NCBI GenBank assembly: GCA_018816445.1
Contig: JAHIVO010000005.1
Location: forward strand, 1 to 63,783
Source: Patescibacteria group bacterium
Lineage (GTDB): Bacteria; Patescibacteriota; Patescibacteriia; UBA10025; JAHIVO01
Direction of reading: 5' to 3'
Length of the DNA: 63,783 nt
Shown here: one piece after another, positions 26,074 through 48,122 of the stretch
How positions within the stretch are numbered: position 1 is the first letter of the stretch
Layout of the letters: each line of letters opens with the position of its first letter
Made by a program: the position numbers and the translations under genes
Notes under the pieces: generated by a model
Seen by the model: the letters and a program-made list of their open reading frames with translations, nothing else
Database searches by the model: none
Told to the model about the DNA's origin: nothing

Positions 26074-27147
26074 TTAATTTCCGTTTTTCAAAAATGGTTT
26101 AATTACCTCAAGCATGGGTCTCTCGGTGCCATCAAATCGAATAAAGCCCCAATTAGATCCGTCGTCTGTCATTTCATCTTTTAGCAGATGCGTGTCGCTC
26201 CAATAAAACCAAGTGACGGGAATATTATTTGTATCCGCCTCGGCATAAAGAAACGCCGCCAATCTGGCCTGCTCCATTTCGCCCACTTCGCTAGCTGGCT
26301 GGCCGATTTCACTGATAACCAGCGGCCAACGATTATTATATTTTGCTAGCAGCGATTGTTCATGGGCGATTGCTGTCTTGACTTGATCTTCCTGCAAGTA
26401 TGGATTAGCTGCATACGGATGAAAGCTCAAATCATCAAAATAATCACCGCCGCCCAAGGCCAGAACCTGGTCATCAAAATCTGAGCCATTAGTTGCTTCG
26501 GCGCCAAGGGTCACAACGACTTTGGCATTGGGGTTCGCTTTCTTGACGATGGGATAAGTAGCTTTGAGAAGCTGAACAAATTCTGCCGGTGAGCCGTACC
26601 TATTTTCATTGAGACTGGGTTCGCCCCATATTTCCCAAAAATAAATAATATTTTTATTGGCGCTGACTGAGTCTCTGACATAACTTTGCCACTCCGACAT
26701 CTCTTTAGGCGTAAAGGCCTGGTCCGCCGGAATGTCATAACTTCCCTGTAGCGAACCTATGGGATACAGTCCTTGCTTTGCAGCTTGGACAGCCATCTTG
26801 TTAGCGACGGAATTATTATTCTGGAAATGATAATTCAACTTAACTCCGTCAAAGCCAGCTGATTTAATATTTTTCATGTCTTTTCCAGCTTCAGCGATGA
26901 TTTGGGAAATAGACATATCCTTGCCACCAAAGATGGAGGAAAGGATACCTAATTGGAGCGAATATCGATAGTATACGCTTTGACTGGGATACGATTGTGT
27001 TGGGACGTCAAGTTTGGTTAATCGCGGTATGACGAAAAATTGGTACGCGTAATACCCGGCAACCACGATCAGACCCAGCAAAAGAATTCTAACTAGGATA
27101 CTGGACTTTTTTTTTGGCTTTGATGATGTTTTTTTTGTTTTATCCAC
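26074..27147 (-). CDS. membrane-anchored TIM-barrel glycoside hydrolase (clan GH-A-like)
   Basis: FWEIWGEPS (NEP-like acid/base motif) and ISEIGQP (nucleophile-like motif), with an N-terminal TM helix. Confidence 0.55.
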   Translation of the reverse strand: MDKTKKTSSKPKKKSSILVRILLLGLIVVAGYYAYQFFVIPRLTKLDVPTQSYPSQSVYYRYSLQLGILSSIFGGKDMSISQIIAEAGKDMKNIKSAGFDGVKLNYHFQNNNSVANKMAVQAAKQGLYPIGSLQGSYDIPADQAFTPKEMSEWQSYVRDSVSANKNIIYFWEIWGEPSLNENRYGSPAEFVQLLKATYPIVKKANPNAKVVVTLGAEATNGSDFDDQVLALGGGDYFDDLSFHPYAANPYLQEDQVKTAIAHEQSLLAKYNNRWPLVISEIGQPASEVGEMEQARLAAFLYAEADTNNIPVTWFYWSDTHLLKDEMTDDGSNWGFIRFDGTERPMLEVIKPFLKNGN

Positions 27148-27258
27148 TTTATTGTTTGTATTATAATCTTAATTTTCAACTTGGCTGTGAATAAACCTTG
27201 TTTGGATCCGTGAAATTTAATCCCAGACGAAATCTTCGAATAGAAACCTTTTATATGA

Positions 27259-27410
27259 CACTCGGGCTTTCCCGCCATACTTCGCAAAGCAAGGTACTCC
27301 CCCCTTCCCCTGAAACTAGTTCAGGGTTCGGAGGGCAGGCGGGTCGCATCCGATAAAAAGTTGTCGATCCGGAGAGGGTGGTCCCGCCATTAGGCTGGAT
27401 TTCGTCGTTC
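27259..27410 (-). repeat. repeat family copy C (diverged)
   Basis: Shares cactcgggc with copy A and gg.gggcaggcgggt with copy B. It lies upstream of the glycoside hydrolase gene, with a TACAATAC box at about 27425 on the minus strand. Confidence 0.5.
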
Positions 27411-27466
27411 AATTTTATTGTATTGTACTCCTCAAGATTCTTTTTTAAAATCGGTGGGGGAGGGAT

Positions 27467-27515
27467 TCGCCACGGGATAAACTAGGGGCGTCCCATTTAG
27501 TAACGGGGCGAGAGT
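27467..27515. repeat. 49-nt double-hairpin repeat, copy D1
   Basis: ttcgccacgggataaactaggggcgtcccatttagtaacggggcgagag. About 80% identical to D2. Confidence 0.7.
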
Positions 27516-27552
27516 CATTCATATTATTAAATGTATAAGTAGTCATCCAGAG

Positions 27553-27639
27553 CGGAGGAGAGAGGATTCGAACCTCTGATACCCTTGCGGGTATACAGCT
27601 TTTCGAGAGCTGCGCCTTCAACCACTCGGCCACTCCTCC
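27553..27639 (-). tRNA. tRNA-Ser (anticodon CGA)
   Basis: Hand-folded cloverleaf: acceptor GGAGGAG/CTCCTCC, anticodon loop CTCGAAA, long variable arm TACCC-GCAA-GGGTA, T-loop TTCGAAT. CCA is not encoded. Confidence 0.9.
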
Positions 27640-27649
27640 GCTCTGGGGA

Positions 27650-27913
27650 TTACTTTTGGATATCAAGTAATAAATCGCGGATTTGTTGTTTTAAGAACCT
27701 CCTGCCTTCGGTTGTTTTTAAATATTTTTCACGTCGCCGAGCGTCTGATTCTCTGGCGTAAACTTCATAATGAATCAACTTTAGGGGACGTCGATTTTTT
27801 GTAGATTCAACTTTACCATTTTTATGCTGTAAAAGCCTTTGGTTTAGTTTATCGGTAAATCCAGTATATAATTATTTGTTAGAGAGTAATAGTATATATA
27901 CGTAATTGTTCAT
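27650..27913 (-). pseudogene. GIY-YIG nuclease (UPF0213-like) with an in-frame TAA at codon 14
   Basis: Translation is MNNYVYILLLSNK*LYTGFTDKLNQRLLQHKNG...EKYLKTTEGRRFLK. This parallels the intact neighbour at 28012..28275. Confidence 0.65.
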
Positions 27914-27927
27914 AATATTGTATTGGT

Positions 27928-27978
27928 TTTCGCCCCGGGATAAACCCGGGGCGTCCCGTCGTATGACGGGACGAGAGC
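27928..27978. repeat. 49-nt double-hairpin repeat, copy D2
   Basis: ttcgccccgggataaacccggggcgtcccgtcgtatgacgggacgagag. Confidence 0.7.
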
Positions 27979-28007
27979 GGCCCGTTCAACCACTCCGGCA
28001 TCCTTCC
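27972..28007 (-). pseudogene. orphan 5' fragment of a class II (Ser-like) tRNA
   Basis: GGAAGGATGCCGGAGTGGTTGAACGGGCCGCTCTCG. This has an acceptor, a D-arm and an anticodon stem, and breaks off after CTCG of the loop. No matching 3' half is seen. Confidence 0.55.
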
Positions 28008-28011
28008 ATAA

Positions 28012-28275
28012 TTACTTTCCTATAGTTTCCATTGTATCAAATAACAAGAATTTTAGTCTTTCTCTTCCTTTGCCGCTCTTTAGAAACTTTTCTTCGGAAT
28101 ATGCATCTTTTTTTGTCAGAAAGGCTTCATAGTATATTAAGTTCCAATCTTTCGCTTTGGAGGTAAATTTTGACTTTCCTGATTTATGTTGCTCTAGGCG
28201 TCTATTAACATTATTTGTAAAACCAATATATTTTTTATTTAATTTTTTACTAAATATTATGTATATATAATACAT
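28012..28275 (-). CDS. GIY-YIG nuclease family protein (UPF0213-like)
   Basis: MYYIYII...YIGFTNNVNRRLEQHKSG...EEKFLKSGKGRERLK. Confidence 0.8.
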   Translation of the reverse strand: MYYIYIIFSKKLNKKYIGFTNNVNRRLEQHKSGKSKFTSKAKDWNLIYYEAFLTKKDAYSEEKFLKSGKGRERLKFLLFDTMETIGK

Positions 28276-28290
28276 CGATGTTTCTATTAT

Positions 28291-28345
28291 GGATCAACCA
28301 CTTCCGCCCTAGGCGGACCAGCCTTGGGCTGGCGGCCACTCCTCC
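28291..28345 (-). pseudogene. orphan 5' fragment of tRNA-Ser with two mini-hairpins inserted in the D-loop
   Basis: GGAGGAGTGGCCG is identical to tRNA-Ser positions 1-13. Next come CCAGCCcaagGCTGG and CCGCCtaggGCGG, then AGTGGTTGA, which matches tRNA-Ser positions 14-22. Confidence 0.6.
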
Positions 28346-28891
28346 TTATCTTTGGTAAATATAAATTTTACTGGCTCTAGGATGGAATTTTTTTGAATCA
28401 ATGATTTTAGCCGGCTGCCAGGCTTTGATAGCGAAAGCAAAGCTGATAACCCGAGCACCGGGTTTTAGGTCCTGTTCAAGCTTGGCCTGAACTTTCGGCA
28501 TAACACTGTCCATTAAAAAGCAGAATACCACGTCGGCTCCGCTTAAATCCTGCTTGTAAAAGTTTTTATGATATAGGACAGTCTTTGATTTTTTCAGCTT
28601 GATGTTTAATCTAGCTAAAAAGTAAGCCCAGGGCGCGATTTCAAAACCGAATGTATTGGCCCCGGTTCTTTTTTCCACCTCAATTAAAAATCTGGCATCG
28701 CCGCAGCCCAGGTCATAAACGTTTTCCCCGGGTTTAATATTAGCTTCATCCAAGACCATGGCAATGACGCGGTTAGGCGTTCTGACAAAGGGCACCTTGG
28801 TATAAAAAAGGATAACCAAGGTGTATAAAGCCAGGATAGCGAAGGCGATTGAAGCAATTAGTACGAAGATTAACACTATTAAATATTCCAT
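28346..28891 (-). CDS. class I SAM-dependent methyltransferase, membrane-anchored
   Basis: VYDLGCGDARFLIEV (motif I) plus an N-terminal TM helix. Confidence 0.75.
   Translation of the reverse strand: MEYLIVLIFVLIASIAFAILALYTLVILFYTKVPFVRTPNRVIAMVLDEANIKPGENVYDLGCGDARFLIEVEKRTGANTFGFEIAPWAYFLARLNIKLKKSKTVLYHKNFYKQDLSGADVVFCFLMDSVMPKVQAKLEQDLKPGARVISFAFAIKAWQPAKIIDSKKFHPRASKIYIYQR

Positions 28892-44931: not shown

Positions 44932-48122
<3,191 letters not shown>

Follow-up and report, generated by a model that had tools for sequence, protein, structure and literature searches.

A tRNA-Ser locus with two GIY-YIG nuclease genes in a Patescibacteria genome points to homing-type elements that probably target tRNA genes

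Here we describe a short locus in a 63,783-nucleotide (nt) contig stretch of a Patescibacteria group bacterium (contig JAHIVO010000005.1; this whole stretch is called the window below), where two genes for small GIY-YIG nucleases are found next to an intact gene for tRNA-Ser(CGA), to fragments of such tRNA genes and to pairs of GC-rich hairpins, and we discuss how this locus may have been shaped by a small cassette that lives in tRNA genes. From a methyltransferase-like gene to a downstream gene for a 357-amino-acid (aa) protein, the contents are GIY-YIG open reading frames (ORFs) and RNA features, and no recombinase gene is present. The features, all on the minus strand, are given in the order in which they are read on that strand.

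28346..28891, minus strand: class I S-adenosylmethionine methyltransferase-like gene (Pfam methyltransferase matches).
28345-28333, minus strand: 5' stub 1, tRNA-Ser positions 1-13, GGAGGAGTGGCCG, 100% identical to the intact tRNA at 27627-27639.
28332-28318, minus strand: mini hairpin H1, 15 nt, CCAGCCCAAGGCTGG, loop CAA (from the sequence).
28317-28303, minus strand: mini hairpin H2, 15 nt, TCCGCCTAGGGCGGA, loop TAG (from the sequence).
28302-28294, minus strand: continuation of stub 1, tRNA positions 14-22, AGTGGTTGA, in register past the hairpins (from the sequence; the same pattern is seen across loci).
28275-28012, minus strand: ORF1, intact gene for an 87-aa GIY-YIG nuclease (Pfam PF01541, E = 3e-17).
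28007-27972, minus strand: 5' stub 2, positions 1-35/36 of a class II tRNA-Ser(CGA) of 'type B', ending with CTCTCG in the anticodon loop (sequence identity).
27971-27931, minus strand: long double hairpin copy A, placed between TCG and AA of the anticodon loop and made of hairpins Ha (27971-27954) and Hb (27953-27931); part of a 49-nt repeat.
27930-27927, minus strand: AAAA, where the anticodon loop of stub 2 is resumed (positions 36-39; from the sequence, and the pattern is also present in relatives).
27913-27650, minus strand: ORF2, GIY-YIG pseudogene with one in-frame TAA at 27874-27872, 40% identical to ORF1.
27639-27552/3, minus strand: intact tRNA-Ser(CGA) of 'type A' (ARAGORN; Rfam tRNA model, 60 bits).
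27514-27509, minus strand: CTCTCG, anticodon-loop remnant of the displaced type-B tRNA, just 5' of copy B (from the sequence).
27508-27468, minus strand: copy B of the long double hairpin, in part degenerate; its identity to copy A across the 49-nt repeat is 80%.
27469-27452, minus strand: 3' remnant of the displaced type-B tRNA, CGAATCCCTCCCCCACCG, whose first two bases overlap the hairpin end (T-loop/T-stem/acceptor geometry).

The window sequence recurs in four other assemblies: two of them differ from it by one mismatch each, outside the locus (L084 and L085; other assemblies and related loci are denoted by such numbers throughout), the third is identical (L086), and the contig of the fourth (L087) stops inside the hairpin pair and has one mismatch to the window at a position that was not located. 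Because matching sequence is present in four independent assemblies, an assembly artefact as the origin of the layout is ruled out, and both the layout and the stop codon of ORF2 are real. A sequence-only reading of this DNA had proposed a first 5' stub made of tRNA positions 1-13 and 14-22 split by two mini-hairpins, an intact GIY-YIG gene after it, a second class II stub that ends in the anticodon loop and is fused to a double hairpin (28007-27931), a GIY-YIG gene with an in-frame TAA, an intact tRNA-Ser(CGA), and a second 49-nt double hairpin followed by a T-loop/acceptor remnant. All of these parts were recovered, the first stub through its identity to the intact tRNA and the TAA in the other assemblies as well. 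The same reading had expected the stubs to match a tRNA covariance model, and this test formally failed: the Rfam tRNA model reported neither stub at E <= 10 in positions 27000-28800. The failure is a technical one, the hairpin-split pieces of 13+9 nt and 36 nt being too short for the model, and direct sequence identity is the better test of such stubs. The other Rfam matches to this region at the same cut-off (Guanidine-II with 21 bits against a 32-bit threshold, rteR and others) were all on the opposite strand and reflect the hairpins.

The tRNA sequences of the locus belong to two types. Stub 2 is 78% identical to the intact tRNA of the window, matches the tRNA-Ser(CGA) of L035 at 33 of 36 positions and is also similar to the tRNA of L091. 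The 3' remnant, which is composed of the T-loop from C56/G57, the 3' strand of the T-stem, the 3' strand of the acceptor stem and the discriminator G, is 72% identical to the intact tRNA and agrees with the 3' end of the L035 tRNA at 16 of 18 positions; a similar remnant is found in L094 (AAATCCCTGCCCCACCG). Stub 2 and the remnant thus match one type of tRNA-Ser(CGA), represented in L035 and L091, and the intact tRNA matches another, its closest relatives being the tRNAs of L089 and L090. This type-A tRNA is best read as the working copy, which the ORF2 cassette either carried in or regenerated. The stop codon of the methyltransferase gene abuts stub 1, and since in L088 the stop codon of the homologous gene runs directly into an intact tRNA-Ser(CGA), the former would, judging by this comparison, mark the start of the original tRNA gene. 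Of the two long double hairpins, copy A, fused to stub 2, folds stably as RNA (z-score -4.8); in copy B the pairing of Ha is kept through compensatory changes, Hb is broken and the fold is weak.

The acceptor stem of the type-A tRNA is extended by 6-7 base pairs (bp) formed by its leader and trailer (27646-27640 and 27553-27547), and this extension is contained in a 14-nt perfect inverted repeat (27646-27633 / 27560-27547). Similar extensions of 6-7 bp are present on the working tRNAs that follow ORF2-type genes in L092, L094 and L097, and they covary among loci (cagagc/gctctg, cctgaac/gttcagg, caaagt/gttttg); they may be a processing signal or a part of the element. Downstream of the locus lies a GC-rich stretch (27250-27440, minus strand), whose TATCGGATGYGACCC and CCCGAGTGYC motifs also occur downstream of tRNA-Ser(CGA) in L088, L089 and L091, and which looks like native conserved sequence that was expanded in the window.

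The linkage of nuclease and tRNA extends far beyond this locus. When one genome per species was scanned for relatives of ORF1, 395 encoding stretches were obtained, of which the best 80 were fetched; 72 of these 80 loci, all from other genomes, have a flank long enough to be evaluated, and the layout is repeated in about a hundred related loci in all. A tRNA gene called by ARAGORN on the same strand and starting -30 to +120 nt from the ORF end was found in 71 of the 72 evaluable loci, against a background of about 0.011 per such interval in the same loci, and the adjacency between small GIY-YIG ORFs and tRNA genes, which the sequence-only reading had predicted, is therefore borne out. The adjacent tRNAs of the ORF1-type loci are mostly tRNA-Ser (GGA 19, GCT 17, TGA 12, CGA 10), followed by Asp and Tyr (4 each), Thr (2) and Cys (1). 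For ORF2-type genes, seven contexts are available with the window and L023: the five independent ones that were fetched, one of them a Lentisphaeria genome with a tandem pair, share the layout at tRNA-Ser(CGA) or tRNA-Gln(CTG), and L023 is the sole exception to it. The distance from the end of the nuclease ORF to the intact co-oriented tRNA is 0-30 nt. In L103-L107, the GIY-YIG/tRNA-Gln unit is immediately followed, on the other strand, by a gene for a large serine recombinase (Resolvase and Recombinase domains), and a larger integrative element may use this tRNA-Gln for attachment, too.

Almost every ORF is preceded by the 5' part of the downstream tRNA, and stub and tRNA are usually 100% identical. 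By stringent blastn, the stub is identical to the downstream tRNA in 43 of 73 loci, and most of the others have visible heterologous stubs. The break points cluster at raw tRNA positions 12-16 and, occasionally, 20-21 (D-stem/loop), 34-36 (anticodon) and 57-58 (T-loop). Past the hairpin module, local tRNA sequence continues for a few to about 26 nt and is followed by a non-conserved spacer of 3-25 nt that leads to the ATG.

The module of the ORF1-type loci is an insert of exactly 30 nt that consists of two mini hairpins, both having a stem of 6 bp and a loop of 3 nt. When 61 distinct sequences were aligned with the inner GCC...GGC cores as the sole anchor, the outer three pairs of each stem could form in 59-61 of them, with two to four types of pair at each position, and the next position outwards paired in 0-1 of the 61. 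The loops are C-R-A and T-N-G, and the module is therefore pseudo-palindromic. Folding of H1 and H2 into one long hairpin was considered and rejected, the cross-pairing being much poorer than the pairing inside each hairpin. A search of the 63.8-kb window and about 430 kb of related loci found one mini hairpin pair in the former and 72 in the latter, 60 of them located 34-66 nt upstream of an ORF start and the remainder in other tRNA stubs or remnants. The long double hairpin of the ORF2-type loci has a similar design, in which the core of the second hairpin is the reverse complement of the first; it is inserted after TCG in the anticodon or T loop and stands upstream of the ORF2-type genes in L092, L094, L096, L097, L100 and L103. 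The type of module tracks the clade of the nuclease, the mini pair accompanying ORF1-type and the long hairpins ORF2-type genes. Rather than an incidental feature, the hairpins are a part of the element that is conserved and specific to each clade. It was also considered that stub and hairpins might serve as a guide RNA for the nuclease; this was set aside, as nothing was found that speaks for it. The stubs range from 8 to 57 nt, and modules are present in 3' remnants, too.

Two loci contain full-length copies of tRNA-Ser(GCT) with the mini pair between positions 12 and 13 (L075:4108-4232 and L079:3259-3415), the second of them with an additional long double hairpin in the T-loop. The hairpin-bearing copy of L075 is called a tRNA gene by ARAGORN, and such pseudo-tRNAs could therefore inflate tRNA counts. 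Another insertion, GC-rich and 100-170 nt long, separates an intact tRNA from a direct repeat of the tRNA's own 3' end (from G57) in L029:3385-3501 and L056:3375-3492, and also downstream of the tRNA in L003, L010, L027, L052 and L062. The T-arm is repeated in inverted form in its outer stem (GGATTCGAA GGG... ...CCC AGGAC). The insertion has a strong fold (z-score -6.6 in L029), matches no Rfam family and may be a second kind of element tied to tRNA 3' ends.

Different states of the same locus can be seen in relatives that were retrieved with the methyltransferase locus through the protein database and that keep the gene order PHP-like gene, methyltransferase gene, tRNA-Ser(CGA). The genomes compared here are distant from each other (flanking proteins 57-72% identical) and are not strains of one species; a metagenome scan for close relatives based on the methyltransferase returned only homologues that are 34-37% identical, none of them near a tRNA. 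The empty site is represented by L088, where the intact tRNA begins exactly at the place that stub 1 occupies in the window. L091 is a relic with a near-identical stub and hairpin pair, 19 nt, an intact tRNA of another type and no ORF; further ORF-less relics are L041, L046, L063 and L064. An intact ORF is present in L092, L094 and L097, and the window holds the pseudogene state. In L014, two identical 323-nt units stand in tandem 5' of the tRNA. In L097 the resident stub and its hairpins are followed by the ORF, a different tRNA, 39 nt of spacer, CTCTCG, module, positions 36-57, module and the resident 3' end, an order that represents the undeleted form of the right side of the window. Downstream of the units of L092 and L094 lie 'graveyards' of three or four displaced tRNA 3' ends of differing types, which in L094 include both the intact type and the remnant type of the window. 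The empty allele, the ORF-less relics, the tandem and the stacked 3' ends support the repeated invasion of a tRNA gene that the sequence-only reading had suggested. It had also proposed that the element restores the tRNA on one side and orphans a 5' stub on the other, and of this the left-behind stub stands; the other side has to be amended, since in the window, L097 and L092 a 3' remnant is left as well and a whole, different tRNA follows the ORF.

Several further observations bear on mobility. In the window, L097, L092, L063 and L046, the working tRNA is of another type than the displaced stub or remnant, which is consistent with co-conversion of flanking sequence, with no donor-recipient pair identified. 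Nucleases that are nearest neighbours share the tRNA anticodon in 31 of 69 cases, and nucleases that are 79-90% identical adjoin different tRNA species. The ORF2-type proteins of different genomes are 79-85% identical, compared with 57-72% for the flanking host proteins. Contigs end at or inside elements in L002, L008, L011, L017, L040, L053, L058, L065, L084 and L087, which suggests that the elements are repeated or polymorphic in the sampled populations. L036 and L037 differ at the right junction by an extra stub with duplicated upstream/promoter flank, a difference that fits homology-driven repair with junctions of variable position.

A LAGLIDADG homing-endonuclease ORF is present in L091 (166-651), about 3.3 kb upstream of the syntenic tRNA-Ser locus. 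The 23S rRNA gene of the window (44935-48116, minus strand) is 3182 nt long, roughly 250 nt more than the 2925-nt Rfam model, and no GIY-YIG homologue is found in that region.

The match of ORF1 to PF01541 (63.1 bits, cut-off 22.6) spans residues 1-71 of 87. Residues Y5, Y16, G18, R26, H30, E61 and E62 are invariant in 33 homologues, all of them are kept in ORF1, and from the GIY-YIG motifs they can be read as the putative catalytic residues. The motifs of ORF2 are intact save for the one stop codon, and the homologues of ORF2 carry PF01541; in intact homologues (identity up to 91%) the residue at the stop is Gln, and the nonsense codon is consistent with a single CAA>TAA change. The AlphaFold2 model of ORF1 (mean predicted local distance difference test score, pLDDT, 94.5) has the GIY-YIG alpha/beta fold, and a Foldseek search with it led to 1zg2 and SLX1 (TM-score 0.57-0.70 on the query) and to the catalytic domain of I-TevI (0.48-0.53). 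In a PDB profile search, 1zg2 (E = 1.8e-9) and 1ywl (3e-5) both came ahead of SLX1. Taken together, sequence and model predict that ORF1 is a UPF0213/SLX1-like GIY-YIG protein made of the catalytic domain only: like members of the UPF0213 class, it has a single domain, its 87 aa fall within the range of the class (about 80-110), and it is closest to BH0048 and EF2693. Searches of the PADLOC defence profiles gave weak motif-level matches alone (E = 4e-4 to 9e-3, about 35 residues), and so did a search of NCBIfam. Homologues of ORF1 form 246 protein clusters, and all those with a source name are annotated as Patescibacteria; homologues of ORF2 form 1432 clusters.

We think it probable, with a good deal of room left for other explanations, that these loci are the work of free-standing homing-type GIY-YIG elements of the UPF0213/SLX1-like kind, which target tRNA genes and regenerate or replace them. 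The best explanation of the window is that it holds two generations of a small selfish cassette living in tRNA genes. The cassette consists of a GC-rich two-hairpin module, a short spacer and a gene for a GIY-YIG protein of 80-90 residues, and the whole unit is roughly 400-500 bp long. From the observed architecture, the association with tRNA genes, the polymorphic states of the locus and the fold of the nuclease, we infer how such an element may work. The nuclease would cut a cassette-free tRNA gene at or near the positions coding for the D-, anticodon- or T-loop, and the break would be repaired through recombination with a cassette-bearing copy. Such repair would copy in the hairpin module, the nuclease gene and the donor tRNA, or at least its 5' part, and what is left of the old tRNA would be the 5' stub, interrupted by hairpins, on the upstream side and in some cases a 3' remnant on the downstream side. 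Because the stub retains the promoter and start of the tRNA gene, this promoter probably drives one transcript for nuclease and working tRNA, from which RNase P would then free the tRNA. The hairpin modules may be the cognate site of the nuclease, or an insertion that makes the cut site immune, or a unit that is mobilised on its own.

The history of the window might then be reconstructed as follows. An ORF1-type cassette would have entered the original tRNA gene, beside the methyltransferase gene, between positions 13 and 14. The type-B working tRNA would later have been split between positions 35 and 36 by an ORF2-type cassette bringing the type-A tRNA-Ser(CGA). Recombination between hairpin copies would have removed positions 36-56 of the type-B tRNA, and ORF2 would have gained its nonsense mutation.

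Several points weigh against this picture. According to Pfam and the model, ORF1 has no separate DNA-binding domain and the whole protein is the catalytic domain; because these proteins lack such a domain, sequence-specific homing is not obviously possible for them, unlike for SegB and I-TevI. The view of the element as tRNA-gene-targeting and homing-type, already put forward in the sequence-only reading, is supported through the association, the stubs and the locus states; the cutting of DNA or of tRNA genes by the proteins is an inferred part of it. The hairpin modules have local tRNA sequence on both sides, even in tRNA-Asp, Thr, Tyr, Cys, Gln and Arg, and simple homologous copying from a tRNA-Ser donor therefore fails to explain them. 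Around the break, stub and working tRNA usually have the same sequence, so that the occupied allele has no evident immunity. Old vertical inheritance could account in part for the ORF2-type genes that share a syntenic locus, and the counts from a scan for promoters and terminators were not above those of shuffled controls.

It is possible, if rather unlikely, that the primary actor is the hairpin module. As a pseudo-palindromic duplex or a cruciform, the module would be the cognate site of a structure-specific SLX1-like nuclease, which would act in trans and place modules into the loop-coding positions of tRNA genes, disabling them, with the cassette tRNA coming to the rescue; the whole would amount to a cleave-and-rescue or addiction module or to a nuclease-mobilised miniature transposon. 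The insertions are indeed precise, the mini pair being exactly 30 nt without target duplication and the long type having a possible 2-nt CG duplication, and local tRNA sequence flanks the modules on both sides in many tRNA species. Modules occur solely in displaced copies, including the pseudo-tRNAs of L075 and L079 and the 3' remnants of L001 and L031, their stems covary, their loops hold two-fold symmetry and their type follows the nuclease clade. SLX1, a nuclease of branched DNA, is among the nearest structural relatives of the protein, and in several loci the cassette tRNA is unlike the resident one. However, no free modules were found outside tRNA/GIY-YIG contexts (1 in 63.8 kb; 72 in about 430 kb), insertion of DNA by a GIY-YIG nuclease has no known mechanism, the rescue tRNA is usually identical to the stub and so not visibly resistant, and tRNA-Ser(CGA) may be non-essential, which would make addiction weak.

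A mechanistically new system has a minority chance. Should it exist, the two-hairpin module, the minimal SLX1-like nuclease and the linked tRNA might conceivably form a DNA-level selfish system that recognises structure and not sequence, an idea that we hold only tentatively. Its targets would be, on this doubtful assumption, hairpins or cruciforms at the loop-coding parts of tRNA genes and in its own module, the resident tRNA being disabled and replaced by that of the cassette. With the same reserve, it might be a cleave-and-rescue drive that arose in nature, or else a transposon-like element whose movement depends on a GIY-YIG nuclease and nothing more, which would be the first of its kind in bacteria.

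Much less probable is an explanation in which the GIY-YIG protein is an ordinary host factor, serving for example in DNA repair or in the maintenance of tRNA loci, that is co-transcribed with tRNA-Ser, and in which stubs and hairpins are by-products of local duplication and hairpin-prone sequence. The tight and conserved gene order, the high conservation of the protein with its invariant residues, and the position of the gene at one syntenic locus in several lineages would agree with such a role. A host factor is, however, hard to reconcile with empty alleles and ORF-less relics, with the nonsense pseudogene ORF2, with identical tandem units, with near-identical proteins beside different tRNA species, with stacked displaced tRNA ends of several types, with the occurrence of the element in a Lentisphaeria genome as well and with assemblies that break at the element.

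The lowest standing among the explanations that can be argued at all, and a very poor one, belongs to Campbell-type recombination of a circular intermediate by a host or distant recombinase through tRNA homology, with the GIY-YIG gene as cargo: direct repeats of tRNA segments do flank the inserts (CTCTCG and the module surround the ORF and tRNA in L097 and in the window) and the stacked 3' remnants do look like tandem accretion at attachment (att) sites, but the unit of roughly 400-500 bp has no integrase or recombinase, its conserved content is limited to hairpins and nuclease gene, its junction positions vary, and the duplicated part is mostly the 5' end, unlike the 3'-end duplication made by integrases. 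A group I intron or a split tRNA can be dismissed, since no intron family matched at E <= 10 and nothing interrupts the working tRNA, which is found 3' of the ORF.

If the homing-type interpretation is true, it gives a biological role, at least in Patescibacteria, to the widespread mini GIY-YIG proteins of the UPF0213 type, that of selfish tRNA-gene elements. It would also mean that homing-type mobility is possible with a nuclease of about 85 residues that lacks a DNA-binding domain, which raises the question of how the tRNA gene is found; the covarying hairpin modules are a concrete candidate for a recognition or control site. In these reduced genomes, copies that move horizontally would take the place of tRNA genes time after time, which matters for the phylogeny of tRNAs, for the annotation of their genes (stubs and hairpin-bearing pseudo-tRNAs) and for understanding where metagenome-assembled genomes break. 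A practical use is also conceivable: a nuclease this small, directed by structure or by site and paired with a defined cis element, could be turned into a reagent.

In full-text literature searches, neither a linkage of UPF0213-type genes to tRNA genes nor the stubs nor the hairpin modules were found described, and these elements can be compared with several known systems that share some of their properties. Like the repetitive extragenic palindromic sequences (REPs) and their RAYT proteins, they link a short GC-rich hairpin repeat to a small nuclease-type gene. RAYTs, however, belong to the HUH/Y1 enzymes, and REPs occur as hundreds of dispersed copies, whereas here the hairpins occur by the nuclease gene or in tRNA remnants only: there is no HUH gene and no genome-wide dispersal (1 pair in the 63.8-kb window). 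In rRNA genes of the candidate phyla radiation (CPR), GIY-YIG ORFs are sparsely found in non-intron insertions at the tops or bases of stem-loops (PMC11270868). The host group is the same, but no tRNA association, stubs or hairpin modules were reported for these insertions (PMC11270868). Integrase-borne islands and prophages resemble the cassettes in their tRNA target, in the restoration of the gene by the element, in duplicated fragments and in tandem accretions; they differ in that islands use a tyrosine or serine recombinase, duplicate the 3' end and measure kilobases, whereas here there is no recombinase, the duplication is mainly of the 5' part and the unit is about 0.4 kb. Free-standing GIY-YIG ORFs of mitochondria (e.g., at Allomyces atp6) enter a gene along with a foreign copy of one part of it and leave the resident part as a pseudogene fragment; their target is the 3' end of a protein gene in organelles, and neither a hairpin module nor a tRNA is involved. 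The UPF0213/COG2827 proteins (BH0048 = 1zg2, EF2693 = 1ywl and E. coli YhbQ) and the SLX1 domain share with ORF1 the minimal domain and the invariant residues, and no report of mobility or tRNA linkage of UPF0213 proteins was found in the literature searched; SLX1, unlike ORF1, partners with SLX4 and carries an added RING domain.

The closest known system is phage SegB, which has a separate DNA-binding region. SegB of T4/T6 is a free-standing GIY-YIG homing endonuclease encoded in a tRNA gene cluster, where its cleavage leads to co-conversion of the nuclease gene and flanking tRNA genes and can give rise to tandem repeats of tRNA and nuclease, and for phages its statistical association with tRNA genes has been documented (PMC2330249; PMC13096335). 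SegB is a phage protein, whereas the cassettes described here encode proteins of 80-90 aa that belong to the UPF0213/SLX1-like branch, are made of the catalytic domain only and reside in cellular genomes (Patescibacteria and one Lentisphaeria), and no hairpin-interrupted stubs, conserved hairpin module or serial tRNA replacement have been described for SegB loci. What the two have in common is a GIY-YIG gene placed among tRNA genes and the arrangement of tRNA and nuclease in tandem units.

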